A stretch of DNA of 64,000 bases from a virus (Duplodnaviria; Caudoviricetes), in IMG/VR virus record IMGVR_UViG_3300032007_000054, positions 26,167-90,166 of that record, one strand, 5' to 3'. Positions 3,379 through 36,700 of this stretch are shown here, piece after piece. Made by a program: the position numbers and the translations under genes. How positions within the stretch are numbered: the stretch's first letter is position 1; each line of letters begins with the position of its first letter. The notes below the pieces were generated by a model that was not told the origin of the DNA, searched no databases, and saw nothing but the letters and a program-made list of their open reading frames with translations.

Positions 3379-3714
3379 ATGGGTTATAGTGTTTCCGACA
3401 ATAAAATCATGTTGACACGCGGAGACACCGCAAAAATCTCCGTAACAGTCAAATACAAATCAACTGGAGACGAATATACTCCGCAGGAAGGGGACCATAT
3501 TCGTTTTTCGTTTAAAAAGTATGTATCCGATAAAAATACGATTTTTGAAAAAGAAGTTCCTATCGACACTATGCTTTTAGTGATTGAACCAGAAGATACA
3601 AAGTCACTTCCTTTTGGCCCATATATATTCGATGGACAGTTGACATTTAAAAACGGTGATGTGGACACTTTTATTCAAAATGGAATTCTTGAGATCACAC
3701 ATGAGGTGAGCTGA
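3379..3714 (+). CDS. BppU-N-like baseplate protein
   Basis: IMLTRGDTA..GD.IRFSFKK..IEPEDTKSL.FG.Y.FD.QL..GDVDTFI pattern; RBS AAGGAG. Confidence 0.6.
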   Translation: MGYSVSDNKIMLTRGDTAKISVTVKYKSTGDEYTPQEGDHIRFSFKKYVSDKNTIFEKEVPIDTMLLVIEPEDTKSLPFGPYIFDGQLTFKNGDVDTFIQNGILEITHEVS

Positions 3715-3980
3715 TGGAAAAAGAATTAATCGGATATCTTTCTGGTGGATCGGAATTAATCGGGACACTTTCTGATGGAGGTTTGCTTTATGGAGAGCTT
3801 TCTATACCGGATCGTTTAGGCACTCCATACGAAGGACCGTGGGAAGTTGTTCCTGATTCAGTGTTTCAGCTTCTTCCGACAGCTGAATGTTATTGTGAGG
3901 ATGATATATTAGTTCATCCGATTCCTTATGCTGAAGTCAGCAATATCAGTGGTGGCTATACCGCAACTATTGGAGGATAA
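3714..3980 (+). CDS. Small virion protein
   Basis: YEGPWEVVP..IPYAEVSNISGGYTATIG; C-terminus matches that of 3984-4580. Confidence 0.6.
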   Translation: MEKELIGYLSGGSELIGTLSDGGLLYGELSIPDRLGTPYEGPWEVVPDSVFQLLPTAECYCEDDILVHPIPYAEVSNISGGYTATIGG

Positions 3981-3983
3981 TTT

Positions 3984-4580
3984 ATGTCACAGCACGATAC
4001 TACAAAGATAATTAACAAAGTAATTTATGATGGGGATGTCCTCATTGATCTAACCAATGATACCATTACCGCTACTGATGTTATTAATAACAAAACTTTC
4101 CATCTGGCGGATGGTACTACTGCAACTGGTACTTGCACTTATGATGCGGATACTTCAGATGCCACCGCAAGTGCAGCTGAGATCCTTGCTACGAAGACTG
4201 CTTATAAGAATGGCTCTAAGATTACAGGCACTATGCCGAATCGAGCCGGAACCAACATTACTGTTTCCGGTAAAGCCGGTACTAATATTCCTACAGGTTT
4301 TTATGATGGTTCTGGGAAAGCAGTCCTCGACAGTACTTCTGCGTCAAATCTCGTTGCGAACAACATTCGTAATGGTGTAACAATTCTTGGCGTTGAAGGT
4401 ACAATGTCACCGGAAGATGAACTGACGGTCGGCGCGATCACTGTGACACCTTCGACCATTCAGCAGATCATTACGGCTGCTTCAGAGAGTCTTGACTATA
4501 TTACTCAGGCTACTATTAATGCGATTCCTTATACAGAAACGCAGAATGCTGCCGGTGGATATACTGCAACGATCGCGTAA
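3984..4580 (+). CDS. Tail fibre-associated virion protein
   Basis: INKVIYDGDVLIDLTNDT module, Thr/Gly-rich, NIRNGVTILGVEGT. Confidence 0.65.
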   Translation: MSQHDTTKIINKVIYDGDVLIDLTNDTITATDVINNKTFHLADGTTATGTCTYDADTSDATASAAEILATKTAYKNGSKITGTMPNRAGTNITVSGKAGTNIPTGFYDGSGKAVLDSTSASNLVANNIRNGVTILGVEGTMSPEDELTVGAITVTPSTIQQIITAASESLDYITQATINAIPYTETQNAAGGYTATIA

Positions 4581-4584
4581 TATT

Positions 4585-8144: not shown

Positions 8145-8156
8145 GGAGACTTCAAA

Positions 8157-9938
8157 ATGGCATTACAAATATGGCTTCCGCTTGATGGAACACTGGAAAA
8201 CAAAGGATGTTTGAACATAGGCACTACGAATACAAGTGCAGTGTTTACGGATTCAGGGAAAATCGGACAAGTTGCAGAAAGCGGAAGATTCACTATAACT
8301 TGCCCGAAGATTGCCAATATACTAAATAGCGTTTTCACAATTAGTTTCTGGGGGCAATTAAAGGCAATCCCAGAAGGAAGCAGTGAAAATGACACATATT
8401 TTTTCAAATGTGGTGTAAATGGTACTCGTACTTGCTTGCATTTTGCTGTGCGCCAAACAAGTGGAGCTTTAGCATTTTGTTTTTATTCAGACGACTATAC
8501 ATTTGTATCCAATTCTTCGAGTTATGTCGGAGTATGGCATCATTTCACTCTGATTTTTGATGGTGAATATCAGATTGTTTATGTAGATGGTAATCTGATT
8601 GGAAAACGAAAAACTGGTGGAAGTTTGCAGATTGCAGAAAATTCAAATTTTATTATCATCAATCCGATGTTTGCCGTAAATGACTTCAGACTTTACGACC
8701 ATTGCCTTTCCGTCGCCGAAGTAAAAGAACTTTCACAGGGGTTGATTCTGCACTACAAGCTTGATGAATCGTACCCTATGACGAACAAAAATTTGCTGAA
8801 AGATTTTCCGAAATATTATAGCAAAACAGGCTACAATGCTTATGTGCTTTATATGACAGAAAAGGTTGTTGAAGGGCAAACATACACATTACAGTTTTGG
8901 GATGTTGATGTTTCTCACACCGGAAAAACGGAATCTCAATTAGGTATCAGTGCTTTTTTAGGTGGAGGTAGTTGGACGCTAAAAACTTTAAATGGCACAG
9001 ATTATTTTACTAATGGTCACGCTGATCATATAGAATGTTCTTTTACAATAACAAGTGGACAGGCATCAAGTTCAGATGCATCTAAATTGGAACTGTGGAT
9101 TTGGAACTCTGTTCCACAAGTATCAGGGACTATGTCTATGTCCATTGGAAAGTGGAAGCTTGAAAAAGGGGACACAGCTACACCATACATCAACTGTGAA
9201 CTATCAGACAAAATTAATCCATTTGTTGTCACAGATTCTTCAGGTTATGGGCATCATGGTCAAATTGTAAATACGGTTTCTTATACAAATGACAGCCACA
9301 GATATTCCAGTTCTATTGATTTGGCAAATACTGTTTCGTCTTATATTACAGGTAGTTGTTATGCGTCTGACACAATAACATTTTCATTATTGGTGAAATT
9401 TAATACCATGAAAGATGCTCATGTAATTGACATGAGAACATCCACTGAAGGGTATCAACCGTTTTATACCTATACCAATGGAACAGTTCAATCTGGTGGT
9501 TCTAATTCGTATGTAAGTTTTAATTCTTCATTTCAGATTGATAGATGGTATCACGTAGTCTTTTCATATGATTCATCTGCATTGAAAATGTATGTCGATG
9601 GTGTTAATATTGGAAGTTCAGGAAAAGGAAGTGCATTTAACAAGGTACTCCCGTTTTATCTTGGAACAAGATTTAATCAGGCAAATTATTCAGATGTGTA
9701 TATTTCCGATTTCCGAATTTACTGCACTGCACTTTCCACCGAAGACATTCTGGATTTGTACCATACATCTGCAAAGATTGACAAGACTGGTAAGGTTCAT
9801 ACGTTCGAGTTTGTTGAAGATGAAGGTACGAAAATAACGAAGACTGGAATTACAGAATGGGTAGAGCTTATTGAAGAAACGGGAAACGCAAAATTCAACA
9901 GTCAATATATCTCAGCGAACGACTTTATAGAAAGATAA
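8157..9938 (+). CDS. Tail protein with two LamG/concanavalin-A-like domains
   Basis: LQIWLPLDG, WHHFTLIFDG..YVDG..NDFRLYDHCLS, and a second WYHVVFSYD..MYVDG..SDFRIYCTALS. Confidence 0.75.
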   Translation: MALQIWLPLDGTLENKGCLNIGTTNTSAVFTDSGKIGQVAESGRFTITCPKIANILNSVFTISFWGQLKAIPEGSSENDTYFFKCGVNGTRTCLHFAVRQTSGALAFCFYSDDYTFVSNSSSYVGVWHHFTLIFDGEYQIVYVDGNLIGKRKTGGSLQIAENSNFIIINPMFAVNDFRLYDHCLSVAEVKELSQGLILHYKLDESYPMTNKNLLKDFPKYYSKTGYNAYVLYMTEKVVEGQTYTLQFWDVDVSHTGKTESQLGISAFLGGGSWTLKTLNGTDYFTNGHADHIECSFTITSGQASSSDASKLELWIWNSVPQVSGTMSMSIGKWKLEKGDTATPYINCELSDKINPFVVTDSSGYGHHGQIVNTVSYTNDSHRYSSSIDLANTVSSYITGSCYASDTITFSLLVKFNTMKDAHVIDMRTSTEGYQPFYTYTNGTVQSGGSNSYVSFNSSFQIDRWYHVVFSYDSSALKMYVDGVNIGSSGKGSAFNKVLPFYLGTRFNQANYSDVYISDFRIYCTALSTEDILDLYHTSAKIDKTGKVHTFEFVEDEGTKITKTGITEWVELIEETGNAKFNSQYISANDFIER

Positions 9939-9948: not shown

Positions 9949-11046
9949 GTGGCACAATTAAAAGATACTGTAATTACTGGAAATCTTCGTGTCACTGACA
10001 CGATCTATGGACATAATCCGCATAATATATACTACGTCAAAGGCACTCAGACAGCGAAAACTGGTACATGGACTGGTGACTTACCAGAAGTTGCTGAACT
10101 TTACGAAGGCTTGGTTATTGATTACTGGCTACCTTTTGAGGGTAGTGGAAGTGCGACGCTCAATCTCACCTTGAAAGGTGGCGCGACATCCGGAGCAGTC
10201 AATATGTATTATGGTGGAACGACAAGGCTAACAACGCATTTACCGGCTAATTATGTTGGACAATTCATCTATCAGACGGTGACTATCAGCGGAACGAACT
10301 ACACAGGATGGTGGATGCTTCGTTCATATACTGATGGCAATACTACCGATATTGTTAATCTTTATCAAGGGTCGGGGGCTTATCAGGCTGACAGTGCTGT
10401 CTATCGTTATCAGCTATTATTCCAGATGGATGAAAACAAATTGACTCCGCTGAATAACAATAGTAATGTGACTGGAACAACAAAGACGATGCTTACCAAT
10501 GTCGAGTTTGACCCGTTTGGCTATATCTTCTATTACAACAGTACGACAACAGTCAATGCAAACGGTAACATGACAACTGCGCTGTACTATCAGCGTAACA
10601 GCGTTGACCTTCGTTACACATTCAATTGTGGTCAGACTTTAACAGCTCATAAGATGCTTTATTTGAAATTAAGTCTTCAGTCAAATGGCAAAGTAAAGAT
10701 CGCTAATGCGACGCCATGGACGCACGATCTTCCAACAACAAACGATGGGTATTTATATTTGCTTCTTGGGCGGACTTATAGCACTTATCAGTTCGCTTTG
10801 TTCAAAGAGCATCCGATCTATTATCATGATGGAACAAGTTTACGTAATTATGTCAAAATGGATCTTGCAACACAATCTAATTCAGGATTAATGTCCTCCG
10901 CAGATAAAACAAAGATTGACAGTATTGGTGGAACAACAACCACTTATTATAGTGCGACAGAAACAATAGAATTTATGTTTTCATTTTCTGGATCGCATGC
11001 TACTTATTATGATGAAACGGAAATGCTTGATTTTATGCTTTCATAA
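9949..11046 (+). CDS. Tail fibre paralog
   Basis: MAQLKD start; ~290 aa homologous to the N-terminal region of 4791-8144. Confidence 0.8.
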   Translation: MAQLKDTVITGNLRVTDTIYGHNPHNIYYVKGTQTAKTGTWTGDLPEVAELYEGLVIDYWLPFEGSGSATLNLTLKGGATSGAVNMYYGGTTRLTTHLPANYVGQFIYQTVTISGTNYTGWWMLRSYTDGNTTDIVNLYQGSGAYQADSAVYRYQLLFQMDENKLTPLNNNSNVTGTTKTMLTNVEFDPFGYIFYYNSTTTVNANGNMTTALYYQRNSVDLRYTFNCGQTLTAHKMLYLKLSLQSNGKVKIANATPWTHDLPTTNDGYLYLLLGRTYSTYQFALFKEHPIYYHDGTSLRNYVKMDLATQSNSGLMSSADKTKIDSIGGTTTTYYSATETIEFMFSFSGSHATYYDETEMLDFMLS

Positions 11047-11313: not shown

Positions 11314-11535
11314 CGATTTAGGCTTCAAAATGGTTGATCCAGAGCCGGCTAAAATTTTAAATTCTGGTAACATCATGAAGCTTTAATTATATATTTTGGC
11401 TGATTCAGCCAGTTATTATTCATCCTTTACCAAAAATCTAGTATTGGTAAAGGCCTTTCAGGGTTAATCTATAATTAGTATTAGGCCGGATGTAGTTTTT
11501 ATGTCCGTCCTTTTACTTTTTTTAATTGAGGTTTT

Positions 11536-15497: not shown

Positions 15498-15741
15498 TTC
15501 CTACATTATTCCTCCAATTTCAGCACTTTTTACGAGTAAAATTACCTTAATTAAATTATGGCTGATTTCGCTTAATTCCTTCAAAATGGTTTAATTTACT
15601 CGTAAATAGAAGTTTTTAAGTGCTGTATAAATGTCATAAAAAGCGGTACATTCCTACAAGTTACATACATTTAAGTTCATACAAAACTTAATTGATATTT
15701 TGTTGTAGGAATGTACTGTTTTTACATTGCGAAAAATGCAT
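15498..15741. other. Putative attP region
   Basis: Non-coding, downstream of integrase; perfect 14-bp IR GTACATTCCTACAA (15646-15659) / TTGTAGGAATGTAC (15703-15716), plus a TTTACGAGTAAA / TTTACTCGTAAA IR. Confidence 0.5.
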
Positions 15742-17021: not shown

Positions 17022-17080
17022 TTTTGCATCTCCTATAGTGAGAGGACAAGGATGATCCTCTTGTGTTTTTAGAAAAGGAG
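17022..17080 (+). repeat. Cassette head repeat (promoter-like motif + leader hairpin + RBS), copy 1
   Basis: TTTTGCATCTCCTATAGTGAGAGGACAAGGATGATCCTCTTGTGTTTTTAGAAAAGGAG; near-identical copies at ~18724, ~19151, ~19581. Confidence 0.9.
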
Positions 17081-17086
17081 TGAAAA

Positions 17087-17266
17087 ATGGAATATTTTGA
17101 TGTATTGTATTATGTTGTTGATAGGAAAACAAACAATTTGCTATTTAACGGGCATGGAAACCCGTTTTACAGTGATGTACTGGAAGCTATGCTGATTATG
17201 CAGAAAGCTCATCCGGAAATGGATTTGGAAATTATTGAAGGGTCTTATACCCTTTTTGATAATTAA
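17087..17266 (+). CDS. Small cassette protein (59 aa)
   Basis: Read manually: AAGGAG-ATG 17087, MEYFDVLYYVVDRK...; stop abuts GCCC-GCAA-GGGC hairpin. Confidence 0.7.
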   Translation: MEYFDVLYYVVDRKTNNLLFNGHGNPFYSDVLEAMLIMQKAHPEMDLEIIEGSYTLFDN

Positions 17267-17290
17267 GCCCGCAAGGGCTTTTATTTTTTA
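17266..17290 (+). terminator. Repeated intrinsic terminator GCCC-(GCAA/GCAT/TACAT)-GGGC + U-tract
   Basis: Copies at 17266, 17839, 18693, 19130, 19561, 20004, 20319, 27411, 45634, 47152, 47381, 52435, each just after a stop codon. Confidence 0.85.
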
Positions 17291-17340
17291 CATCTCCTAT
17301 AGTGAAGACAATGTCTGTCTTCGAGATTTTAGGAGGAAAA

Positions 17341-17424
17341 ATGGAAAATGTTGTATATAAGTTGTCCACAGAAGAATTGTGGAAATTGTTGATTTGGTTT
17401 GCATCTGTAGAAAGGAGCAAATAA
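17341..17424 (+). CDS. Micro-protein (27 aa)
   Basis: AGGAGG RBS, MENVVYKLSTEELWKLLIWFASVERSK, TAATG-coupled to next gene. Confidence 0.5.
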   Translation: MENVVYKLSTEELWKLLIWFASVERSK

Positions 17425-17834
17425 TGAAAATATTAGAGTACTTTAAAAACAGAATAAAGTTGTATAAAGTACGAAAAGAAAGAGAAGTTCTTTCCTGCTA
17501 TATTGAGGCAGGATTAAAAAGAAAAGGTGTGTTGATCGCTTTGTGCGAAAAACGCTATATGGACTATGTATTAAAAGAGTCCAGAGTTAAATGTTTATTC
17601 AGTTCAATAGAAGATTTTCGAAACTATATGTTTAAGTTCGAATTTCCATATATTGAAAATAGTTGTTTTCTGTATGGAAAACAGCAAAAAGAATTGGATC
17701 GTAATAAAGAAAAATTATTACGAGAGGATTGTAATCCAGAGCATATTGTATTGCATTATAGTTCTGGAGATCCATCTATTTGTAAATACGATTATGTTTT
17801 ATATGCAGAATGCATTGACGTAATTGGAAAATAA
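17424..17834 (+). CDS. Hypothetical cassette protein
   Basis: ATG 17424 with AAGGAG; stop followed by repeat terminator. Confidence 0.7.
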   Translation: MKILEYFKNRIKLYKVRKEREVLSCYIEAGLKRKGVLIALCEKRYMDYVLKESRVKCLFSSIEDFRNYMFKFEFPYIENSCFLYGKQQKELDRNKEKLLREDCNPEHIVLHYSSGDPSICKYDYVLYAECIDVIGK

Positions 17835-22189: not shown

Positions 22190-22741
22190 ATGGTATATCG
22201 CAAGTTTTATAAAAATGAAAGTATTTTTCGTGAACAGGCTGAATTGTGCATTGCTTTTTCTAAAGAACTTCAGAAGTTGTTGGCTGATGATTATGAAACA
22301 GTTGGTACAACATTTCATGGAAACCAAAGACCGCTTGTTGAAAATAAGAATACGAATAAATTTTGTCTTAATGACTATTATCTTGTTCCTTTAGGAACAA
22401 AAAAGGAGATCACTTACTACAGTAAGCCGAAGTGGTCTTTTCGTTTTTCAGATCATTGGAACTGGTATGAAAAGAGTAATCGGTGCGATGATACGGATTT
22501 TATTCAGTGCTTTAATGTCGATTTACCAAGAGTTGGTAAACGTTTCGTTTCTACAGATGTAAGGTCTGCGCCTTGTCAGGCTATTCAGGTAGCAATCTTC
22601 ACTCATGATCATGTTAAAAAGCATCATGATGGTGAAGCATATCACTGTGTCTACGGATCTTATAAAAATAAGGATACCCATAGTTGGGAGTGGATGGAAA
22701 AAACTCCGCAGCAGGTCATCGAAGAGTATTATCTTGCGTAA
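22190..22741 (+). CDS. Hypothetical protein
   Basis: GGAGGTG RBS; SFRFSDHWNW motif. Confidence 0.7.
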   Translation: MVYRKFYKNESIFREQAELCIAFSKELQKLLADDYETVGTTFHGNQRPLVENKNTNKFCLNDYYLVPLGTKKEITYYSKPKWSFRFSDHWNWYEKSNRCDDTDFIQCFNVDLPRVGKRFVSTDVRSAPCQAIQVAIFTHDHVKKHHDGEAYHCVYGSYKNKDTHSWEWMEKTPQQVIEEYYLA

Positions 22742-22747
22742 TTCAAA

Positions 22748-23071
22748 ATGGAGGCCGGAATGAGATTCCGAATCGTTAAAAACAGAACAGATCCCTTCTA
22801 TGGACGTCGAGCAAACTGGTACAATGTCAAGTTTACTGAAGATATCCAAAAGGATCTTGAAAAAAACTATATAAAGGAAATACATAATAGAACTGGAAAG
22901 CAGGATATGGACATTATTAATTGTTATGAAAATGCCGGTCTTGCTCATGAGCTATATGCCTGCCTTGAAGAAGACGATGATGAGCGAATGCGTCAAGCCC
23001 TCCAGCGGCTGGCAGATGAAAAACTGAACCAGGTCGTTTCGATTCTGGTTGATCTTGGTTACACGTTTTGA
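22748..23071 (+). CDS. Hypothetical protein
   Basis: ORF in operon; true start may be 22760. Confidence 0.6.
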   Translation: MEAGMRFRIVKNRTDPFYGRRANWYNVKFTEDIQKDLEKNYIKEIHNRTGKQDMDIINCYENAGLAHELYACLEEDDDERMRQALQRLADEKLNQVVSILVDLGYTF

Positions 23072-23077
23072 TTCAAA

Positions 23078-24115
23078 ATGGAGAAAAAGATGAATAAAGT
23101 TGAAATGCATAAGAAGATTTGTGAAGAATTAAACGACTTGTACGAACGCAAAAACGCCGATTACGGCGAAAGCTTTGCCGAACTCCGAAAGGAGTATCCG
23201 GAATCGATCTGTATCCGCCTTACAGATAAACTAAACCGACTGAAAAAACTCACTTCTGCTGATCATGAACAGAATGTCAAGGATGAATCAGTTGAAGATA
23301 CGCTGAAGGATATTGCAAATTATGCGATCATGGAATTAGTGGAACGGAAAGGTACTGAAGATGAATCAATACTAAATGATAATATTATGTTGTTCTATGA
23401 TGAAGTAACTCAACATTATTTTCAGGCAAATCAAAAACAGATTAATGCTGCGTTAACAAGTCTGTCCAAGATGATGGAAACTAATGGATATGTAACAATA
23501 TCTGATTATTTGAGGCATATTGGTTTAGGCGAATTTGACGATGATGATACATATAATCAATTAGGTTGGAATGAGAAATGGCCGGCATGCTTCGGATTTT
23601 CTACATCAGAAGGGTGTTTATGTGGAGAACCTGTAGTAAAAATAAAAGTAACGTACCCTTATACATTGGTTAATAAGTGGCAAAAATCCGTTGAACATTA
23701 TGGCATTACAGGTCAAAAATGGGGTAAACGACAAAAAGAATATAAGTCAATTCTTATAGCTTTTTATAATTATGATATGAACAAACATATTCAAAATCTT
23801 CAGCTTGTGTATAACAATACCATAGAAGAACAATACGAATACCATAGTTATGACATTTCCGGACAATCTTGGAAAGATCAGGTATTTGAAATGGCGAAGT
23901 ATATCTACACATTTCTGGATGGCGTGTATTCAGACGACCATGGCGGATCAATGTTTGTTCCGGATATGCTTGGAAGGAATGCTCTTTGGATAGCTTTGGA
24001 CGTTATAGATCATGAGAATCATGAAATCGAGTATAACATGGCAGATCCTGAAGAATACGATCGGATCACTGAGTTTTATAAGATTTATAAGAAAGGAAGC
24101 AGGAATGAAAGATAG
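23078..24115 (+). CDS. Mosaic protein: DUF1599-like + GW-type domain + HYGITGQKWG motif
   Basis: YERKNADYGESF..RLTDKLNRL (DUF1599-like); central region similar to C-termini of 27837/29009/30971. Confidence 0.6.
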   Translation: MEKKMNKVEMHKKICEELNDLYERKNADYGESFAELRKEYPESICIRLTDKLNRLKKLTSADHEQNVKDESVEDTLKDIANYAIMELVERKGTEDESILNDNIMLFYDEVTQHYFQANQKQINAALTSLSKMMETNGYVTISDYLRHIGLGEFDDDDTYNQLGWNEKWPACFGFSTSEGCLCGEPVVKIKVTYPYTLVNKWQKSVEHYGITGQKWGKRQKEYKSILIAFYNYDMNKHIQNLQLVYNNTIEEQYEYHSYDISGQSWKDQVFEMAKYIYTFLDGVYSDDHGGSMFVPDMLGRNALWIALDVIDHENHEIEYNMADPEEYDRITEFYKIYKKGSRNER

Positions 24116-24335
24116 TTTGATAGATATAATGCCGAATAGAAAATCAAATAGCGGAGATCTTAGAACATTCATAACCTATTATTATGAATCAGATGAATAT
24201 GATCGTGATCGAGAAGACGGTTTATATGTTATTGAAATTAAAGTATTTGATGGATCGAGAATCATTCGAAGAGAAAGAATCGTAACTGATAATTTACACA
24301 TTTTTGAAGACACAAATCCAGATAAGGAAGCATAA
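24105..24335 (+). CDS. Hypothetical protein
   Basis: ATG 24105 overlapping previous stop. Confidence 0.6.
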   Translation: MKDSLIDIMPNRKSNSGDLRTFITYYYESDEYDRDREDGLYVIEIKVFDGSRIIRRERIVTDNLHIFEDTNPDKEA

Positions 24336-24766
24336 TGAAAAATTTTGTTAAACGCATAATTACTTTTGTTCACGGTATCATTGCCGGTGTATTACTGTAT
24401 AAATTCTTTACAAATTCGGTTTTACTAAATTATCTGAAGAAAGACTTTGAACGTAAACCGGTATATCGTGTCCGACCTTATTATACAGACTATTCTTTTT
24501 ATAAAACACGATCCAACGATTTTGATATTTTTGACTTTGGTTTTGGAACCAGATCTGATGCAGAGCAAGTATTAAATCAAATCAAAATGGAAATAGAAAA
24601 AAATGGATTATGTACTATTGGAAGATTAAAAGAGCTTTCCGGGATCGAATCGTTATGGTCTGATCAACATAAAGGATGGACAGAATTATCTGAAAATGTG
24701 CGTGTTAGTCGATGCCGTGATGGTAAATATTATATTGAACTTCCGGATCCGGAAGAATTAGATTAA
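24335..24766 (+). CDS. Membrane-anchored protein, paralog of 30359
   Basis: N-terminal TM; FGTRSDAEQVL..GWTEL..RDGKYYIELPDP. Confidence 0.65.
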   Translation: MKNFVKRIITFVHGIIAGVLLYKFFTNSVLLNYLKKDFERKPVYRVRPYYTDYSFYKTRSNDFDIFDFGFGTRSDAEQVLNQIKMEIEKNGLCTIGRLKELSGIESLWSDQHKGWTELSENVRVSRCRDGKYYIELPDPEELD

Positions 24767-24829
24767 TCATACGCAGATGACGATAAAGAATGATAAATTT
24801 GTATCGTAAAAAATTCCCGGAGGGAGAAA

Positions 24830-25081
24830 ATGGAGAAAATCTTTGAATTTCTGGCACCTCATGCCAATTTGTTGTTTTTCCTGCTCGGTGTACTGATCAC
24901 AGTGATCATCTGGCTGATTATTCCGGCGAAGAAGCCGCATCCGATCGGGGACTTGTTCGTGATTCACTATCCGAATGGGTTTAAAGAGCTGTATCTTAGA
25001 CTTGAGGATGATATTGATACGTTTGAAAACGATCCAAAAGTTTGTTTCAATGTACTAATCGATGATAGGACGGATGAATGA
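24830..25081 (+). CDS. Membrane-anchored hypothetical protein
   Basis: TM LLFFLLGVLITVIIWLII; GGAGGG RBS. Confidence 0.65.
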   Translation: MEKIFEFLAPHANLLFFLLGVLITVIIWLIIPAKKPHPIGDLFVIHYPNGFKELYLRLEDDIDTFENDPKVCFNVLIDDRTDE

Positions 25082-25305
25082 GCGGTATTGGGTTTATTGA
25101 AGTGCATAGAGTTTTTGATAATAAAGAAATACTTATCAATGTCGCATATATTACTGATGTTCTAAGCGAGATACCCTTTGCTCATGATAATATAAATGCG
25201 ACTCTTATTGAGACCCTGGATAATCAAGTTTGGAGAGTTATTGAAACTTATGATGAAATCAAGGAATTGATTAGTCAAAGCAATAGGATCTTCAAAATGG
25301 AGTAA
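25078..25305 (+). CDS. FlbD-like small protein (tentative)
   Basis: FIEV..EILIN..I..V..TLI..V.ETYDEIKELI pattern. Confidence 0.35.
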   Translation: MSGIGFIEVHRVFDNKEILINVAYITDVLSEIPFAHDNINATLIETLDNQVWRVIETYDEIKELISQSNRIFKME

Positions 25306-25380
25306 TCGCTAAATTTTCATTTCCTAAAATGGAGAGGCAAGGATGGCCTCTTTTTGTTTTTAAATTAGAAAGGAGTGAAA

Positions 25381-25848
25381 ATGGGAAAACCGAAGTTGAA
25401 AAATATGTCATTAGAAGAACTGGAAGAGCAGTTTGAAGATTTTGATGAAGAAATCGTCCAGGATGTTGAATTATGGGACGAAAAATATGTTGATAGCAGT
25501 GATATGCTGCTGAAGGAAATAAATGATCTTTCGAATGGTGAAGAAAGATCAAGAGCGATTAAGGATTTGCAGATAATGGAGCAGATCACAAACGAACGGA
25601 TCAAAGTTCGTAATGAAAATCGTAAAATGAAGCAAGAGCTGATCCTGAAAGAGGAAGAGCTCAAAAATCAGAAGAAAGCTAATCGATGGGGCATTTTAGC
25701 TCAAATCGGAGGAACGATTTTATCGTTCGTAGGCTATTCGATTCTGTTGCAGAGGCAGAATGAATTCGAAAGCGGAGACAGTTACTCGACAAATGGAAGT
25801 CGAGGATTGACTCAGAATATCTCTCACTTTGTTGGGAGAGGTAAATAG
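25381..25848 (+). CDS. Coiled-coil protein with C-terminal TM
   Basis: Promoter motif and leader hairpin at 25306-25345; hairpin terminator ~25857-25890. Confidence 0.7.
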   Translation: MGKPKLKNMSLEELEEQFEDFDEEIVQDVELWDEKYVDSSDMLLKEINDLSNGEERSRAIKDLQIMEQITNERIKVRNENRKMKQELILKEEELKNQKKANRWGILAQIGGTILSFVGYSILLQRQNEFESGDSYSTNGSRGLTQNISHFVGRGK

Positions 25849-25894
25849 TTGTAATCAAGGCTATGACTTTGTTCATAGCCTTTTATTTTTTATT

Positions 25895-26254
25895 ATGCGA
25901 TATCACTATGAGGAACCGGAAGGTCTGGCAAAACGCTATGGGCAGATCTATCGCTGTGATCACCCGATATATACCTGGTGCACATTATTTATAGTCGGAG
26001 AACGAGGACTGGCCGTGATCCGACAGTACTTTGATTCTGAGAAAAAAGTGACTTATTGGAGAGAACTTGATCGAAATCTGACAGCAGATATTTATCTGAA
26101 TGATGGGTTCGAAGAGTACTTTCAAAAACATGCAAAGCCTTGTAAGGACGGACTGTATCCTACAGTTACGGTCCGTCAGATCATGTGGGCACTGCGGATG
26201 AAGCCGCTGCCGAAAAAACGTTGGGAGACTGTCTTTGACAGAAAGGAGATCTAA
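25895..26254 (+). CDS. Hypothetical protein
   Basis: ATG 25895; TAATG coupling to next gene. Confidence 0.65.
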   Translation: MRYHYEEPEGLAKRYGQIYRCDHPIYTWCTLFIVGERGLAVIRQYFDSEKKVTYWRELDRNLTADIYLNDGFEEYFQKHAKPCKDGLYPTVTVRQIMWALRMKPLPKKRWETVFDRKEI

Positions 26255-26472
26255 TGCCGAATGTAATCACGGAATGTGAAATCAAGCGTTCAACTATTGA
26301 CCCGGCTGTTATGCTGATCAATGTCAAATATGATAATGATTCAAAATGGAATCTGCTGCGTACATATTTTCCGAATGAACTGAGTTTTCATCCAGATGAG
26401 TTTGTCGGCCTGACAGATACAGATGCATTGAATTTCTGTTGGGAGCGGGATCTTGAGTTTCTCAGGAGTTAA
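26254..26472 (+). CDS. Hypothetical protein
   Basis: YFPNELSF..DEFVGLT motif. Confidence 0.65.
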   Translation: MPNVITECEIKRSTIDPAVMLINVKYDNDSKWNLLRTYFPNELSFHPDEFVGLTDTDALNFCWERDLEFLRS

Positions 26473-26474
26473 GA

Positions 26475-26897
26475 ATGAAAGTATATGTATTACTGAATAC
26501 TGATGATGAAATTGTAAACATTTTTGACAGTGTAGAAGCAGCGGATGAAACGATCAGTACCGATGCCTTTTTTGATGGATGGTACAAAGTAATTGATGTA
26601 TATGGAGATATATATTACAAGAATGAGTGTTTGGGGCTCATGACCCTTAAGCCTTATGAACTTATAAATTTATCAGCAAAATCTGCAGATCAGAATCCAA
26701 TGTCATGGGATGAACTTATGGTCTGGAAAGGAAATCCGGTATGGATCGAAACCCCGAATAAGAAATACTGGACAATCGTTCTTAATTCCGGAAAGCTGGC
26801 TGATGGTTCAAAAATGTTTATGGATCATGAAGAGTTTTATCATGAAAAAGACAGGGGAAAAACCTGGGAGGCTTATAAGCAGAGAAGGAGTATATGA
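26475..26897 (+). CDS. Hypothetical protein
   Basis: C-terminal W.EL..GNPVWI..W..Y module paralogous to 57917. Confidence 0.65.
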   Translation: MKVYVLLNTDDEIVNIFDSVEAADETISTDAFFDGWYKVIDVYGDIYYKNECLGLMTLKPYELINLSAKSADQNPMSWDELMVWKGNPVWIETPNKKYWTIVLNSGKLADGSKMFMDHEEFYHEKDRGKTWEAYKQRRSI

Positions 26898-27217
26898 TGC
26901 ACTTAAAACCAGAAGATACAATTATTGTGACCAGACATCCGGGTATTGTGGAATGGCTGGAAAAACATTACAGTATTACCGGAACTGTAAAGCAGTCCGT
27001 AACAATCGAAGACATTAAAGGTAAACATATCATCGGGGAAGTCCCTGCTTATGGTGCACAGTATGCTTTTTGTGTTTCTGCAATCATCTGGCCGCATCCA
27101 TGGAAAGAATATGGTACCGGAACACTAACCTATGAAGATGTAGTTGCAATGGAACCGGAGCTGTTCACTTATGTGGTCGTTCCGGTCGTTGACACAGATC
27201 CTACAGACTACTACTAA
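26894..27217 (+). CDS. Csx16-like small Rossmann-fold protein (tentative)
   Basis: IVTRHPGIVEWL..DIKGKHIIGEVP resembles SRHPGA.EW..GD.V.G.LP of Csx16. Confidence 0.45.
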   Translation: MMHLKPEDTIIVTRHPGIVEWLEKHYSITGTVKQSVTIEDIKGKHIIGEVPAYGAQYAFCVSAIIWPHPWKEYGTGTLTYEDVVAMEPELFTYVVVPVVDTDPTDYY

Positions 27218-27292
27218 AAATCGCAAAATTTTCACCTCCTATAATGGAAGGACATAGAGGTCCTTTTGTGTTTTTTATTAAAAAGGAGGAAA

Positions 27293-27461: not shown

Positions 27462-27827
27462 ATGAAAAAGTTATGGAGTAAGATAAAAAATCTGGCGAAG
27501 AAGTTCTGGGAGAAGCTTCAGGATGCATGCATCTGGATCGTCAAAATGGTGAAGAAACTGATCGAATGGTGCATGAATAATCAGGAGGTCGTATATTGCG
27601 GTGTATTTGCAGCATCATGCGCGAATACGATTTATAAGAAATATCGCAAGACAAAGTCTGAAAAAGAGCTGGAATTTCATCGGAATAACCTTTATGACCG
27701 CAGTATGGGGCATTACTGGCAGCTGAGGCGCAGACTTACCTCAGACGAAATGCGTGAATTGGAACAGCGGAAGTATTATGGCGAGAGCATGGGAGATATT
27801 CTGGAAAGTATGAAGGTGCTCGCATAG
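27462..27827 (+). CDS. Hypothetical protein
   Basis: Amphipathic N-terminus; YDRSMGHYWQLRRRLT motif. Confidence 0.7.
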   Translation: MKKLWSKIKNLAKKFWEKLQDACIWIVKMVKKLIEWCMNNQEVVYCGVFAASCANTIYKKYRKTKSEKELEFHRNNLYDRSMGHYWQLRRRLTSDEMRELEQRKYYGESMGDILESMKVLA

Positions 27828-27836: not shown

Positions 27837-28646
27837 ATGAATATTGCTAGAGCAGGAAAGTTCGCTTTACAGTTTATAAGGCGAAACTCTCCGATCATTC
27901 TAAGCGTCGCTGCCGGAATCGGATTGGCAGCGCTTTATATTTTAACGATTAAAGAAACAGAAGAAGTTGTCCATGAAATCGAAGAAGCGCCGGAAGAGGA
28001 GGTCCATAGCTTCAAAATGGTGAAAAAAACTGTCAAAATCATGGCACCTTCTTTTGTTGTTTTACTGCTGACGATGTTCTGCATTGTACAGTCCTGCAGG
28101 ATCTCGCAGCATCGAATACGGGACCTTACTCAGTATTCAGCCATGCTGGCAGCAACTTTGAATCAGTATCGGCAGAAAAACCGGGAGATCATCGGACCGG
28201 ATGGTTCTGAAAATAATGACAAATTTATAATGTATGAAATCGCGTCTGAGAATATGCCGGATGAACTGCCTGATGATCCGGAAGATGGAATTCTGTGTGA
28301 ATTAATTGGGTATCCGCATTATTTTAAAGTTCCAAAACTTGAAAATATATATGCCGGATTTTTAAATGCAAATGAATATATGGAAACCGGCTGGGGATCT
28401 GTAGAGTTATCCAAGTTATTCAGATGGATCAATGCAATCCACTATGATGAAAAAGGTCATCGCTGTGGTATGGATGTTAATTATCTGCATTACGGATGGG
28501 AAACACACGATCTGTCAGATTGCGAGAAAGTAAGCGGATTATATCCATATATTGGCCGTATAACAGAGGACAGCGGTTTAGTTGTATATCTGATCGACGT
28601 CCCGGCTCCAAAACCGCTGGACGTAAGTTGGGAATATGGGATCTAA
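27837..28646 (+). CDS. DUF6353-like membrane/coiled-coil protein
   Basis: RRNSPIILSVAAGIG TM, second TM, coiled coil, C-terminal GW domain. Confidence 0.6.
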   Translation: MNIARAGKFALQFIRRNSPIILSVAAGIGLAALYILTIKETEEVVHEIEEAPEEEVHSFKMVKKTVKIMAPSFVVLLLTMFCIVQSCRISQHRIRDLTQYSAMLAATLNQYRQKNREIIGPDGSENNDKFIMYEIASENMPDELPDDPEDGILCELIGYPHYFKVPKLENIYAGFLNANEYMETGWGSVELSKLFRWINAIHYDEKGHRCGMDVNYLHYGWETHDLSDCEKVSGLYPYIGRITEDSGLVVYLIDVPAPKPLDVSWEYGI

Positions 28647-28986: not shown

Positions 28987-29008
28987 AAACGAAAGGAAAC
29001 AAATCAAA

Positions 29009-29794
29009 ATGGGAATTAATTTTATGAAGGATGCTGTGAAGGGCCTGTGTACCTTTGCCAAGGTAAATGCAGGTCCGATCTCGACAGTAGCGGTGATCCT
29101 TGGTATGGTCACCGCTTTTTCTTTAGCTGCCAAAGCAGGAAAGGAAGCGGCTGAAGATATTGAGGAAGCGAAGGAAGAGCTGGAGGTTGAGGAATTAACA
29201 CTCGGCGAAAAAGTAAAGTTTACCTGGAAGCGGTTTTTACCGGCAGTGTTTGTGCTGCTGCTGACCATTACAAGCTTCGTATATACGACCCGGCAGATGG
29301 CAAAGCGATATGCTGCACTGTCGGCAGCTTATAGTTTGACTGAAAGTTATCTGAAAGATTACATGGATGCAACAAAAGAAGCTGCCGGTCAAAAGAAAGA
29401 GCAAACGATTCGTGATGCTGCAAATGTAAAACAGGCAAAAAAGTATCCGATCGAACGTGGTGTTATTGAAACCGGGTACGGTGATGATCTGTTTTTTGAT
29501 GAAGTGATCACAACTAGATATTTCAGATCAACACTGGATCACGTACAAGCAGCAGAAAAAGAGCTTGCCAGTATTTATCAGGCTGAAGATTCGATTACCA
29601 TGGATGATTACACATTCCGGATGGGACTTGGTACACGATCAAATAACGGAAATAATCTTGGTTGGAAAAAATCAGGAAAGCTTGATGAAACAAATAAGTT
29701 CTTCCTGTATTATACAGCAGCGATCAGTGACAGCGGAGAACCGTATATCATTATCAGTCAGGGCCCAAACCGTATGACTGATCTTATGCGGTAG
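29009..29794 (+). CDS. DUF6353-like membrane/coiled-coil protein
   Basis: Same architecture; KRYAALSAAYSL, FFDEV..RYFRST, LGW. Confidence 0.65.
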   Translation: MGINFMKDAVKGLCTFAKVNAGPISTVAVILGMVTAFSLAAKAGKEAAEDIEEAKEELEVEELTLGEKVKFTWKRFLPAVFVLLLTITSFVYTTRQMAKRYAALSAAYSLTESYLKDYMDATKEAAGQKKEQTIRDAANVKQAKKYPIERGVIETGYGDDLFFDEVITTRYFRSTLDHVQAAEKELASIYQAEDSITMDDYTFRMGLGTRSNNGNNLGWKKSGKLDETNKFFLYYTAAISDSGEPYIIISQGPNRMTDLMR

Positions 29795-30946: not shown

Positions 30947-30970
30947 ATTCAAAATGGAGAAATAAAGGAT

Positions 30971-32787: not shown

Positions 32788-32795
32788 GAGGGTAA

Positions 32796-33350
32796 ATGCG
32801 AGATTATGAGCTTGAGAAAGGATATTTTGAATGGCTCTATGATCTCGTCTGCAATGATGGATATGTAAAGGAGCTCGATTATCAGGAGCTCCTTTTTCGT
32901 CTCCATCAAAAAGATTTTGTTTATATTCTGCCAAGAGATGAGAACCGTTTTCAGGACGGTGTAGCCATGCGGTATTACTACGGATATGAGGTAAATGCTC
33001 CAAGAGAGCAGATCACGGATGTTCTGGATAATCGTCCATGCAGTGTTCTCGAAATGTTGATCGCATTAGCGATCCGTATGGAGCAGGAGATCATGTCAGA
33101 TACCGATTACGGAAACCGGACCTGGAAATGGTTCTGGAAAATGATGACCAATATGAATCTTGGCGGAATGACGAATGATAAATTCGACGGAAGATATGTG
33201 GACAGAGTTATAGAGCGTATGCTGGCTCGTAAGTACGAAGCCAACGGAAGAGGAGGCTTATTCACGATCGCCAACTGTAAAGAAGATCTGAGGAACGTTG
33301 AGATCTGGACGCAAATGAACTGGTATCTTAACTCCGCAAGCGAGGTGTAA
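32796..33350 (+). CDS. Conserved phage protein
   Basis: YFEWL, DENRFQDG, CSVLEMLIALA, GRGGLF, EIWTQMNWYL. Confidence 0.75.
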   Translation: MRDYELEKGYFEWLYDLVCNDGYVKELDYQELLFRLHQKDFVYILPRDENRFQDGVAMRYYYGYEVNAPREQITDVLDNRPCSVLEMLIALAIRMEQEIMSDTDYGNRTWKWFWKMMTNMNLGGMTNDKFDGRYVDRVIERMLARKYEANGRGGLFTIANCKEDLRNVEIWTQMNWYLNSASEV

Positions 33351-33554
33351 ATGGAAGCTTTGTATAAGAATAAATTTGAACGATTCCCGGCAGAGCAGTT
33401 GGAAAGCGATGCACTGGTGAAAGTCGGTGAGCGTCACGAAATGTATCTGAATGGCGGAACCTATCTGATTAAAAACGAAATGACCGGGCAATTATATCCG
33501 ATCAGTAAAGAACTTTTTGAGTATTTATTTGAGAAAGAGGAAACAAATGAGTAA
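33351..33554 (+). CDS. Hypothetical protein
   Basis: ORF in operon. Confidence 0.65.
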   Translation: MEALYKNKFERFPAEQLESDALVKVGERHEMYLNGGTYLIKNEMTGQLYPISKELFEYLFEKEETNE

Positions 33555-33795
33555 TGAAGAAATGAACTACAAGCTTGCTGTTGACAATGCAAAAGATATC
33601 CAGCGTCTTAGTGATGCAATGATCCTGCAGTCTGAGATCAATAAAAGTCATCGACGTGCCGGAATGTTTACAAGTCTTGGTTGTATGATCATGGCGGGTG
33701 TTATGTATTTTATTGTCGAAGCCGTTGCTGATCTTCAGAAACGCGTAAAGACGATCGAGGGTGTTGAAAAGAAGATTGACAATACCGAGGACTAA
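33547..33795 (+). CDS. Small membrane protein
   Basis: ATG 33547; central TM; TAATG coupling to replicase gene. Confidence 0.6.
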   Translation: MSNEEMNYKLAVDNAKDIQRLSDAMILQSEINKSHRRAGMFTSLGCMIMAGVMYFIVEAVADLQKRVKTIEGVEKKIDNTED

Positions 33796-36700
33796 TGGAC
33801 TTTCTAGAAATCTCCGAAGAAGAGACCAAAAAAGGTACGGAGATCGTTGCAGGGTTCATTGTCAATAATAGAACGACCGATTTGATGACCCGGGCCAAAG
33901 ATTTTTATGCGGTCTGGGTCGAAGAACTTGGATTGTGGTCCACAGATGAACAGGATCTGATTGAGCTTGTAGATAAAGAGCTCGATCATTATTACAGTGA
34001 GCATCGTGGAAAATGGGAACGGAAGCCAAAGATCAGGCATCTGATCCGTGGTAAAAACAAAGCGATCGATGAGTTTCATCATTATTGCAAAGAGCAGCTT
34101 CGTGAAAACTGGCATCAGCTCGACGAGAAATTGATATTCTCCAATCAGAAGACAAAAAAGAAGGATTATGCAAGCAAAAAGCTTGACTATCCGCTGGAAG
34201 AAGGTCCGCATGAAGCATGGGACCGGCTTATGTCTGTTTTATATTCTGATGAGGAGCGTCATAAAATTGAATGGGCGATCGGAGCCATCGTCAGCGGTGA
34301 CTCCAAAAACATTCAGAAGTTTCTCGTGTTTTACGGTCCACCGGCTTCCGGTAAGTCCACAGTTATCCATATTATCGAAAAATTATTCAAAGGGTATTGC
34401 AGTGTTTTTGATGCCAAAGCGCTTGGATCGACAAATGAGTCATTTGCCATGGCTCCATTTAAATCCAATCCGCTCGTTGCATATCAGCATGACGGTGATC
34501 TTTCGCATATCGAAGACAACACCAGATTGAATTCGATCGTTTCTCATGAAACGGTATTGATCAATGAAAAGAATAAACCGCAATATCCGATGCGCATCAA
34601 CAGTTTTCTTTTCATGGGCACCAACAAGCCGGTACGGATCACAGACGGTAAATCAGGTCTGCTAAGACGGCTGATCGATGTCTCTCCGTCCGGCAAGAAG
34701 GTCCCGAAAAGAGAATATGATGCATTAATGAAGATGATCGACTTTGAACTTGGTGCGATCGCGTGGCATTGCCGGCAAGTTTATTTGGACGATCCGCAAT
34801 GTTATGATGAGTATACACCTTTGAATATGCTCGGTGCATCCAATGACTTTTATAATTTTGTCCTTGAAAAGTACTTCGAATACAAACAGAATGACCATGT
34901 CACATTGCAGGTCGCCTATGAGGACTATAAAAGTTATTGTGAAAGAGCGAATGCTTTCACAATGCCGATGCGGGCATTCAAAGAAGAATTAAGAAACTAT
35001 TTTGTTGATTTTAAAGACCGGGCAACGCTTGAAGACGGTACCCGGGTCCGAAGTTATTTCTCAGGATTCCGGGCAGATAAATTTGAGGAGAAATGGAAAA
35101 AGAAAGATGAGCCGAAAGAGGACCAGAAAAGGTCCTGGCTTGAATTCAAATTCCAGCCGTCACTGCTTGATATTTTGCTTGCTACTTGTGCAGCACAGTA
35201 TGCCAACAGTGAAGGAACGCCTCTGAAAGCATGGGATAACTGCTTTACAAAACTGTCCGGGCTGGATACAAGCAAACTGCATTATGTGCGGGTTCCGCTG
35301 AACCACATTGTAATTGACTTTGATATTCCAGATGAAAACGGAAATAAGTGTTTTGAAAAGAATCTGGCTGAAGCTTCAAAATGGCCTCCAACTTATGCTG
35401 AACTAAGCAAATCCGGAGCCGGGATCCATCTACATTATCTCTATCAGGGAGATCCGACAGAGCTTAAACCGATCTATAAGGAGCATGTCGAAGTCAAGGT
35501 GTTTAATGGTGCAAGCAGCCTGCGCAGACTGTTGACAAAGTGTAATGATATTCCAGTCGCCACGATCAGCTCCGGTCTTCCATTGAAGGAGAAAAAGAAA
35601 GTGGTGAGTTTTGATTCGTTCACCAACGACAAAGCACTGGTCACTGCGATCAAGCGCAACCTGAATAAGGAAAATGTCGCCGGGACGAAACCAAGTGTGG
35701 AATTGATCTATAAGGATCTTGAAAAAGCTTATGCCAGCGGGATGCATTATGATGTGTCAAAATGGAAGCAGCCGATCTATGATTTTGCTTCCAACAGCAC
35801 GCACCATGCCGGTTATTGTATCAAACTATTTAATAAAATGAAGTTTTGCTCCGAGGATGTGGCAGAAGCCGAAATAAATAATGAGCTTCCCATTGTATTT
35901 TTCGATGTGGAAGTATTCAGTAATCTGCTTCTGATCTGCTGGAAATATCCAGGCAAACAAAGTAAAGTCGTGAGGATGATCAATCCGAGTCCTGACGAAG
36001 TTCTTCATTTAATGACTAACTATCGTCTAATCGGGTTCAACTGCCGACGGTACGATAACCATATTTTGTATGCACGGAGCCTTGGAGCAAGTCTTGCCGA
36101 GATCTATGAAGTCAGCAAGGGCATTATTGCGAAGGATAAGAATGCCTTCTTTAAAGAAGCCTATAACGTATCTTATACAGATATTTATGACTTCAGCAGT
36201 AAGAAACAAAGTTTAAAGAAATTCGAGATCGATCTGGGGATCCATCATAAGGAACTTCCGATCCCATGGGATCAGCCGGTTCCTGAGGATCGCTGGGTCG
36301 AAGTTGCTGAATATTGTGACAATGATGTGATCGCGACTGAAGCGGTTTGGGAAGATCGTAAGGACGACTTTACCGCAAGGGAGATTCTGGCGGATATTGC
36401 CGGAATGAGTGTTAACGATACGACAAATACCCTGACTACCAGGATCATTTTCGGTCAGGACCGCAGTCCGCAGAGTCAGTTTAATTATCGGGATCTGAGC
36501 AAACCGGTCGGACCGGAAAGATATTCAGAATACCGGTCGATGTTTGGAGATGACTATGAATTCAGAATATTCGATCAAAATGGTCTGCCAACCTACCAGC
36601 GATATGATGGTGGAGAAATACCTGAAGGATACTCTATTCTCCCATTTTTCCCAGGATACGTCTTCGATTCCGGGAAGTCGGTTTACCTGGGTGAAGAGAT

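Follow-up and report, generated by a model that had tools for sequence, protein, structure and literature searches.

A one-strand nine-base word in phages of the PHROG 4291 group, a candidate late-arm promoter for a putative two-barrel RNA polymerase

Introduction

Several kinds of short sequence recur along one strand of bacteriophage and viral genomes. The class II and class III promoters of T7 and the late promoters of T4 (TATAAATA) stand every few kb on the same strand, in short gaps or inside the upstream gene, are gathered in one temporal block and are linked to a transcription protein of the phage; the T4 late element consists of a single 8-mer and lacks a second box. The late promoters of poxviruses (TAAATG) and those used by the non-virion RNA polymerases of phiKZ and AR9 are short AT-rich initiators that end in ATG and are read by two-barrel polymerases. 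Stoperators, known from phage L5 and cluster A, are 13-bp operators of the immunity repressor that are asymmetric, held in one orientation, present in many copies, enriched in short intergenic gaps and variable from one immunity group to another, and the nick motifs of T5, tf and the phiKMV-like phages are short, exact, one-strand words spaced by a few kb. Start-associated sequences (SAS), described in cluster K mycobacteriophages and cluster EF Microbacterium phages (PMC7302621), are short, highly conserved asymmetric words found at the starts of a subset of genes. Here we describe the 9-mer TCAAAATGG, together with its 10-base form TTCAAAATGG, in a 64-kb stretch (hereafter the window; bases 26167-90166) of the 90,166-bp rumen virus record IMGVR_UViG_3300032007_000054, the source phage, and in relatives that share its PHROG 4291 protein, a putative RNA polymerase.

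The word resembles each of these systems in part. It is placed like the T7 and T4 promoters, but it often overlaps a start codon, T7 promoters span 23 bp, and the putative polymerase of these phages, which is predicted to be two-barrel with fused helix-turn-helix (HTH) domains, is unrelated to T7 RNA polymerase. By analogy with the poxvirus and phiKZ/AR9 initiators, the word is AT-rich and carries an ATG at its presumed start that is frequently also a translation start; unlike it, poxvirus late promoters also need an upstream A/T-rich core, and AR9 reads uracil-containing template DNA. It shares with stoperators the properties listed above, but it is invariant across phyla, present in lytic relatives and intragenic in half of its copies. 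Whereas SAS occupy the position of the ribosome-binding site and are specific to a cluster, the word stands in two registers relative to the start, is intragenic at one third to one half of its sites and is common to two phyla. It differs from the nick motifs in being limited to one arm. No description of TCAAAATGG in a phage context was found in the literature searched, in which the papers on YonO, on the supercluster discussed below (bioRxiv 10.1101/842583), on Microbacterium phages and on cluster DJ give other motifs only.

Results and Discussion

The source phage carries TTCAAAATGG 14 times in the window, always on the plus strand and never on the minus strand when both were searched, against a chance level of 0.51 copies on average and 3 at most in dinucleotide shuffles. 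A first-pass annotation, made by a model from the letters of the window, had listed 13 copies and put the expectation well under one; all 13 coordinates are exact, and a 14th copy at 679-688 had been overlooked. Over the whole 90-kb genome the exact copies number 19, with 19 forward and 0 reverse, are co-oriented with the genes and span genome positions 7511-61541. The restriction of the exact 10-mer to the left part of the window, which had also been noticed at that stage, is borne out, the last copy ending at window position 35384 and the final 28.6 kb of the genome holding none on either strand. Forms with one mismatch do occur in this final portion, namely TTCAAAATGC at window positions 39996 and 43790 and the 9-mer variants at 35756 and 36574, and permitting one mismatch adds 12 TTCAAAATGG-like sites, 11 of them forward. 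As a conserved core, the 9-mer TCAAAATGG occurs 25 times forward and 0 times reverse in the genome, at intervals of about 2-4 kb along the coding strand. An information profile over 90 positions revealed a preceding T and otherwise no consensus in its flanks, and in a larger sample the two bases 3' of the word are purines in 72% and 80% of sites, compared with 53% in the background.

Nine of the 19 TTCAAAATGG copies lie in or at the edge of non-coding DNA, which makes up 7% of the genome, and eight of these nine begin 0-10 nt past the upstream stop codon. The other ten are intragenic and use all three reading frames, so the earlier description of copies directly after stop codons and others inside coding sequences is accurate. 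Under a codon-aware null, in which synonymous codons were permuted within every gene while intergenic copies were kept in place (300 runs), 10.6 +/- 1.1 copies of TTCAAAATGG were obtained, with a maximum of 14, against the 19 observed. Given the encoded proteins, about two intragenic copies are therefore expected where about ten are present, an excess of roughly fivefold that a codon-preserving shuffle fails to match.

The same word on the same strand is found in relatives that share the PHROG 4291 protein, which settles in the affirmative the conservation that the first-pass annotation had put forward for checking. These relatives were obtained by polymerase-based tblastn and by a motif-anchored DNA scan; the primase-polymerase, used as a query in IMG/VR, found no relatives. 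In nine of nine complete PHROG 4291 relatives TCAAAATGG is same-strand and stands mainly in the structural arm, with one reverse copy in Faecalibacterium phage FP_oengus. Arthrobacter phage Circum has TCAAAAT(A/G)GG eight times on the plus strand, seven of them in the structural arm, and Lactococcus phage P078 has TCAAAATG(G/A) ten times forward and 0 reverse between 1280 and 16771. In the structural arms of Streptomyces phages DrGrey (4 forward/0 reverse) and Scap1 (3/0) the word is TCAAAATGG, and in that of Gordonia phage Duffington (6/0) both TCAAAATGG and TCAAAATAG are used. Rhodococcus phage ReqiPepy6 carries TCAAAATGG nine times forward and 0 reverse, eight of them within 4-30 kb and one at 45 kb, and Bifidobacterium phage BitterVaud1 carries it five times forward and 0 reverse at 14.5-29.3 kb. 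A backwards-read control pattern gave zero matches in DrGrey, Duffington, ReqiPepy6, BitterVaud1 and Scap1. The two most over-represented words of FP_oengus (50% GC) are the same as in the source phage, TGATATTT with 36 forward and 2 reverse copies and TCAAAATGG with 17 and 1, the latter distributed over the first genes past the integrase and the whole structural arm.

More than 117 IMG/VR contigs were retrieved by a DNA scan that took one conserved site as its anchor, and 80 loci from them (716 kb, 32-62% GC) were analysed. These loci contain TCAAAATGG 209 times forward and 0 times reverse, where Markov models expect 4-8; avoidance of the opposite strand, at 0 observed against 2-3 expected, is not significant. 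The word is identical across this range of base composition and across phages of two phyla, Firmicutes and Actinobacteria, and in five of five large contigs that carry it the PHROG 4291 gene is co-oriented and lies directly upstream of the word series. One contig, G003, has three reverse 9-mers, none of which lies in inverted late genes. Two of these (L145:11475 and 12918) fall in paralogous plus-strand genes that encode the same conserved peptide, T-I-L-T, a coding coincidence, and a further one is located in its early region at 34108.

A Lachnospiraceae prophage carries ten co-oriented copies of TCAAAATGG in the 14.7 kb downstream of its polymerase gene, and outside the prophage the same chromosome holds 55 copies in 3.5 Mb, 31 and 24 by strand, with neither enrichment nor bias. 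A host Chi or chromosome-polarity word (KOPS/SRS) was rejected on this count and on the presence of the same word in two phyla. The first-pass annotation had likened the sites to L5 stoperators or antitermination boxes. Its general idea of an asymmetric site that is oriented with transcription, enriched at gene junctions and recognised by a sequence-specific factor stands, but the stoperator model does not, since lytic relatives carry the same word. An immunity-repressor operator of the L5 type was thus rejected, the identical 9-mer being present in relatives without an annotated integrase or repressor, such as Circum (whole record) and DrGrey (first 30 kb), and unchanged across two phyla. We take P078, whose record lacks functional annotation, to be virulent. 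Phages of cluster DJ likewise have no annotated integrase or repressor (PMC9671010).

Conservation extends to individual places in the genome. The capsid protease-capsid gene begins at a copy of the word in FP_oengus, Circum, DrGrey and the prophage, and in the source phage a copy precedes this gene by 84 nt. In Circum and the prophage the word also marks the start of the following conserved head gene, whose protein begins M-x-F-Y-G; the variant TCAAAATGC occupies this place in DrGrey. The PHROG 4338 gene holds the codons TCA-AAA-TGG about 108 nt from its start in the source phage, Circum, the prophage and DrGrey (59% GC). Occupancy of syntenic places across the IMG/VR loci is 40-60%, and sites thus turn over while their density is kept. 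The word is retained in genomes of 59-62% GC against their codon bias, and selection on TCAAAATGG acts at the nucleotide level, synonymous codon positions included.

A separate observation concerns DrGrey gene 15, whose annotated start (11313) is probably too far downstream (L021:11290-11320); M-R-F-Y-G-K-V-G-Y, the N terminus conserved with Circum gp13 and the prophage, opens at the ATG in TCAAAATGC (11290).

These counts also bear on the idea that the word is a by-product of coding or composition, that is, a favoured start context or a repeated peptide with no function of its own. AAAATGG does offer a favourable context for initiation, some copies specify the residues Ser-Lys-Trp of a conserved protein, and the synonymous shuffle retains about two of the ten intragenic copies. 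We nevertheless find this explanation hardly credible in view of the strand counts of the IMG/VR loci, the use of all three frames, the many ATGs that are not starts, the retention in GC-rich genomes and the absence of the word from the other arm of the same genomes.

The record ends (genome 1-40; window 63960-64000) are both homologous to the cohesive ends (cos) of Circum and P078, and the record is therefore taken as a complete genome in virion orientation. The left arm holds, in order, the terminase, portal, capsid protease-capsid fusion, major tail protein, a 3,932-aa tape measure and the tail and lysis genes, which reach about 41.6 kb (genome) and are followed by a minus-strand tyrosine integrase. 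Beyond the integrase lie about 16 kb of small genes, three DUF6353 paralogues among them, and further right a 1,323-aa primase-polymerase, NrdD, a helicase, an endonuclease and a Cas4-like exonuclease, with the 916-aa PHROG 4291 protein at the right end. The gene order of FP_oengus is that of the source phage. A supercluster holding these phages was described by Koert et al. (bioRxiv 10.1101/842583), and the group has in common the primase-polymerase, the helicase, a VRR-NUC-type endonuclease and the Cas4-like exonuclease. The capsid protein, searched against public assemblies, is carried by three contigs.

The PHROG 4291 protein has a weak match to an RNA-dependent RNA polymerase (RdRP)/two-barrel core with HTH domains on both sides, the C-terminal one being similar to sigma region 4. 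With the "putative RNA polymerase" of FP_oengus it shares 46% identity, and with proteins from about 250 GenBank phages of Arthrobacter, Gordonia, Streptomyces, Rhodococcus, Microbacterium, Bifidobacterium and Lactococcus it shares 35-46%. When the genome is circular or concatemeric and its cos ends are joined, the gene for this protein immediately precedes the structural arm. Pfam and PHROG scans of the small proteins near the polymerase found no obvious sigma factor, RNA-binding protein or ribonuclease. The word is unchanged over 32-62% GC and two phyla and is unenriched in the host chromosome, which argues that its reader is not host-specific; the reader must be a phage-encoded factor conserved across the group. 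The HTH-flanked polymerase is the sole conserved sequence-specific nucleic-acid-binding protein that we identified and is for this reason the candidate reader, and among the HTH proteins that the first-pass annotation had named the one at 60879, this putative polymerase, appears the most plausible. We tentatively favour, with some doubt, the reading that TCAAAATGG is a second, minimal class of late-arm promoter or initiator for this putative two-barrel enzyme.

Many sites touch the start of translation. At 47 of the 118 sites in relatives (about 40%) a Shine-Dalgarno (SD)-like sequence lies just 5' and the ATG of the word probably serves as start codon, and at 31 of the 118 the GG of the word opens GGAG or GAGG, which could serve a start about 10 nt on; the remaining sites, about one third, are intragenic. 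In the source phage the ATG of the word is the start of the genes at window 8157 and 29009 and at genome 9548, and in many copies it opens a frame of just 2-10 codons. Circum has the ATG-less form TCAAAATAGG. Start-codon context alone was rejected as an explanation on account of these short frames, this ATG-less form and the one third to one half of sites that are intragenic. The word could also act at the RNA level, with UCAAAAUGG on the messenger serving a conserved phage protein either as a translational operator across initiation regions, in the manner of T4 RegA, or as the target of a sequence-specific endoribonuclease, in the manner of T4 RegB, and so timing or tuning the synthesis of structural proteins. 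Such a signal would agree with the strict placement on the sense strand, with the overlap of about two thirds of the 118 sites with the translation start region in two geometries, with the starts that the word supplies in the source phage and with the conserved sites at the start of the capsid gene. We consider it unlikely, however, as one third of the sites lie deep in genes, such as the PHROG 4338 site and those in the tape measures, where cutting would destroy needed messages, as the ATG so often opens a minimal frame, and as the scans reported above found no conserved RNA-binding protein or ribonuclease.

Hairpins provide a second context. Five copies in the source phage have a terminator-like hairpin within 120 nt downstream and two have one upstream. 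In the longer gaps four copies sit between the upstream stop and a hairpin with T-tract, and in some gaps the 10-mer, TGATATTT and the long motif described below are each followed by a hairpin with T-tract and then by a ribosome-binding site. A fixed order of word then terminator is present in the source genome but is not kept in relatives, FP_oengus having one hairpin downstream and two upstream and Circum, P078 and DrGrey none downstream, and as a defining feature of the word it was rejected. The late arms of most relatives have few predicted terminators. These observations bear on the possibility that the word controls elongation from the non-template strand or the nascent RNA, either as a loading site for antitermination or processivity factors or a pause site (ops/RfaH, nut), or as an orientation-dependent roadblock, like a stoperator in its action but independent of immunity, at which an early phage protein would hold the late genes silent until their time comes. 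The single orientation relative to transcription, the recurrence every 2-4 kb along a long operon, the four copies placed between stop and hairpin and the zoning of the genome, each zone with its own word, would all suit such control. It is nonetheless improbable, given that the order of word and terminator is lost in the relatives and that most of their late arms offer few terminators to overcome. Its immunity-repressor version is excluded by the lytic relatives with the same word (cluster DJ: PMC9671010).

Apart from the word, terminator-like hairpins with T-tracts end 25-45 nt ahead of many start codons in the source phage, even before the capsid gene in the late operon; examples precede the starts at genome 7595, 10951, 48087, 71840 and 73944 (the last three at window 21921, 45674 and 47778). 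These hairpins could be leader hairpins or attenuators instead of simple terminators. The intergenic sequence CCATTTCTAACCATTTTGCCTCCTTTGAA (window 49803-49870, genome 75969-76036) is antisense to a ribosome-binding site and start region, and may form a fold-back structure with the initiation region of the gene that follows (49919).

The spacing of the word is more even than random in seven of 11 genomes, and the word recurs within long tape-measure genes. A short, exact, flankless word on one strand, tolerated inside genes and more evenly spaced than chance, could be a signal of the DNA strand itself, such as a nick site of the kind known from T5, phiKMV-like phages and tf, a hotspot for a recombination module (helicase, Cas4-like nuclease, annealing protein) or a priming site for the primase-polymerase. 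The group-wide set of primase-polymerase, helicase, VRR-NUC-type endonuclease and Cas4-like exonuclease would be compatible with this idea, and initiation regions may merely be the cheapest place for a 9-mer in a compact genome. For such a signal a genome-wide spread is expected, whereas the word keeps to the structural arm in lytic relatives and stays within the left two thirds of the source genome; moreover, it bears no resemblance to the cos ends, and the host count and the cross-phylum identity exclude a host Chi or KOPS-type word. We therefore regard a DNA-strand signal as quite improbable.

Two further one-strand signals occur in the genome. A long promoter-like motif, TCGCAAAAT-TTGCAnCTCCTATAATGR, is present in 10 strict copies (for example at 18730, 19587, 21212, 25318 and 27233); it typically follows a GCCCGCAAGGGC terminator and precedes an AGAGGA...TCCTCT hairpin with T-tract and AAAGGAG. 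The same design is found in DrGrey, P078 and Circum, and the motif has been noted in Gordonia phage Vardy of cluster DJ (PMC9671010). The AAAATGG of the word matches the permitted 3' end of the long motif, the ends of which include CCTAAAATGGAG and CCTATAATGG, one copy reading CCTAAAATGGAG. The two elements are alike in their strand rule, their conservation across phyla and their last seven bases (A/T-A/T-AATG-R). The long motif, which is intergenic, measures 27-50 bp and is carried by the Lactococcus 1706 group, FP_oengus and actinophage clusters AK, DJ and BI among others, is composed of three parts and lies ahead of non-structural genes and downstream of terminators, whereas the 9-mer lacks upstream parts, is often intragenic and fills the arm that has no long motif. 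The right end of the genome holds a half-copy of the long motif (TCGCTAAAAAACCACCCCC).

The second signal, TGATATTT, often extended to GATTGATATTT, has 50 forward and 3 reverse copies in the genome; it is dense at window 37.7-58.9 kb (genome 63884-85072), starting where the 10-mer stops, and sparse elsewhere. The Lachnospiraceae prophage has 18 forward and 1 reverse copies of it as well as TTATATTT 23 times forward and 0 reverse, and it is not shared with Circum or P078. Intragenic copies are nearly always in the frame nnT-GAT-ATT-Tnn, and TGATATTT is often located between a ribosome-binding site and ATG. The partition of the genome between TGATATTT and the 10-mer argues for class-specific signals. 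At the ends of the FP_oengus record a 28-bp direct repeat, TGTGTAACACCATTTCTATCTGATATTT (L010:1-28, L011:28364-28391), ends in TGATATTT and is presumably the attachment (att) core.

The copies of the word in the window and the features associated with them are collected in Table 1. The three DUF6353 paralogues (window 27837-31897), which FP_oengus has likewise, each hold or directly follow a 9-mer (28011, 29003 and 30948), and in FP_oengus a copy (6070) stands ahead of the first DUF6353 gene.

Table 1. Copies of the word and associated features in the window (ORF, open reading frame; SD, Shine-Dalgarno sequence).
Feature	Window position	Strand	Context
TTCAAAATGG copy	679..688	+	within ORF 365-793; not in the first-pass annotation
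TTCAAAATGG copy	3674..3683	+	within ORF 3379-3714; next start 40 nt on
TTCAAAATGG copy	8151..8160	+	between 1117-aa gene and gene 8157-9938; own ATG is start of 8157; AAGGAGA just 5'
9-mer copy (GTCAAAATGG)	10852..10861	+	within ORF 9949-11046
TTCAAAATGG copy	11324..11333	+	10 nt past stop of 11056-11313; 222-nt gap, hairpins downstream
TTCAAAATGG copy	15580..15589	+	past last structural/lysis-arm gene; upstream of large hairpin, then minus-strand integrase
TTCAAAATGG copy	18185..18194	+	within DUF6431 gene 17920-18264
TTCAAAATGG copy	21858..21867	+	abuts TAA of 21627-21857; then hairpin and T-tract, SD, start
TTCAAAATGG copy	22742..22751	+	abuts TAA of 22190-22741; its GG opens GGAGG ribosome-binding site of 22760
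TTCAAAATGG copy	23072..23081	+	abuts TGA of 22760-23071; its GG opens GGAG of 23090
9-mer copy (ATCAAAATGG)	24581..24590	+	within ORF 24335-24766
TTCAAAATGG copy	25291..25300	+	3' end of ORF 25078-25305; long promoter-like motif (25315) 24 nt downstream
TTCAAAATGG copy	26340..26349	+	within ORF 26254-26472
9-mer copy (GTCAAAATGG)	27540..27549	+	within ORF 27462-27827
TTCAAAATGG copy	28011..28020	+	within DUF6353 gene 27837-28646
9-mer copy (ATCAAAATGG)	29003..29012	+	own ATG is start of DUF6353 gene 29009-29794
TTCAAAATGG copy	30948..30957	+	1 nt past stop of 30359-30946; DUF6353 gene 30971 23 nt on
Final exact TTCAAAATGG copy	35375..35384	+	within primase-polymerase gene 33795-37766
9-mer copy (GTCAAAATGG)	35756..35765	+	within primase-polymerase gene
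9-mer copy (ATCAAAATGG)	36574..36583	+	within primase-polymerase gene; final 9-mer of genome
Putative HTH-flanked two-barrel RNA polymerase, PHROG 4291, 916 aa	60879..63629	+	candidate reader of the word
Long promoter-like motif zone	17027..27247	+	10 strict copies; end bases resemble 3' part of 10-mer
TGATATTT zone	37718..58906	+	32 of 50 genome copies; replaces 10-mer

The data show the enrichment of the word, its strand rule, its restriction to an arm, its occurrence together with the polymerase gene and its conservation across phyla; in the late-arm promoter reading, we infer both that the polymerase reads the word and that RNA starts there. Initiation in or just past the A-tract of the word would be the work of the enzyme by itself or together with a small late factor; with HTH domains at both ends, one of them sigma region 4-like, the enzyme could read DNA unaided. 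The even spacing of the word and the likeness of its AAAATGG to the end of the long motif also speak for this reading. Many internal start points would then feed the capsid, tail and lysis genes by the logic of T7 class III and T4 late promoters, and the recurrence of the word in the long tape-measure genes fits start points that sustain a long operon. In the source phage the word would also feed the small-gene block adjoining the integrase, while the long 27-nt motif with its TATAAT-like end would serve the gene cassettes beside the integrase and the third word, TGATATTT, would mark the replication genes in this clade. More doubtful is the narrower proposal that TCAAAATGG(RR) serves as a late promoter of the initiator type, recognised by the polymerase itself, with RNA starting in the A-tract or at the GG, and unchanged between phages of Firmicutes and Actinobacteria. 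If this were true, many late messages would be leaderless or have few bases before the ribosome-binding site, like those from the poxvirus late TAAATG, and together with the long early motif there would be two promoter classes and a built-in switch from early to late.

Several observations weigh against a promoter. The word has just 9-11 informative bases and no upstream element, and at the 47 of 118 sites with an SD-like sequence upstream an RNA begun at the word would lack the ribosome-binding site of the adjacent gene. Several copies in the source phage lie upstream of terminator-like hairpins, and nine fall outside the late genes, in the small-gene block and the primase-polymerase gene. 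The copy at 15580 stands beyond the late genes and is directed towards a terminator and the antisense strand of the integrase, although in T7, too, a promoter stands at the end of the genome. YonO of SPbeta, a distant homologue and the only one characterised, works from a single promoter (PMC5467207), and the yonN-yonK gap of SPbeta, which holds the mapped YonO start, is without TCAAAATGG.

Conclusions

Proteins of PHROG 4291, whose usual annotation is "HTH DNA-binding protein", are found in hundreds of cultured actinophages, in lactococcal dairy phages and in gut phages. An invariant one-strand word of nine bases that is tied to the structural genes represents a concrete and cheap experimental handle on this group, as the Arthrobacter, Streptomyces and Lactococcus hosts are easily grown, and in practice it can be used to recognise and orient the structural arm of such phages quickly in metagenomes. 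If the word is a nick, cleavage or roadblock site, it would mark a step of the life cycle that is conserved in a very large group of phages and has so far not been described. If it is a promoter, it would define how the late genes are switched on in the whole supercluster and would provide a very short orthogonal promoter for a small single-chain polymerase.

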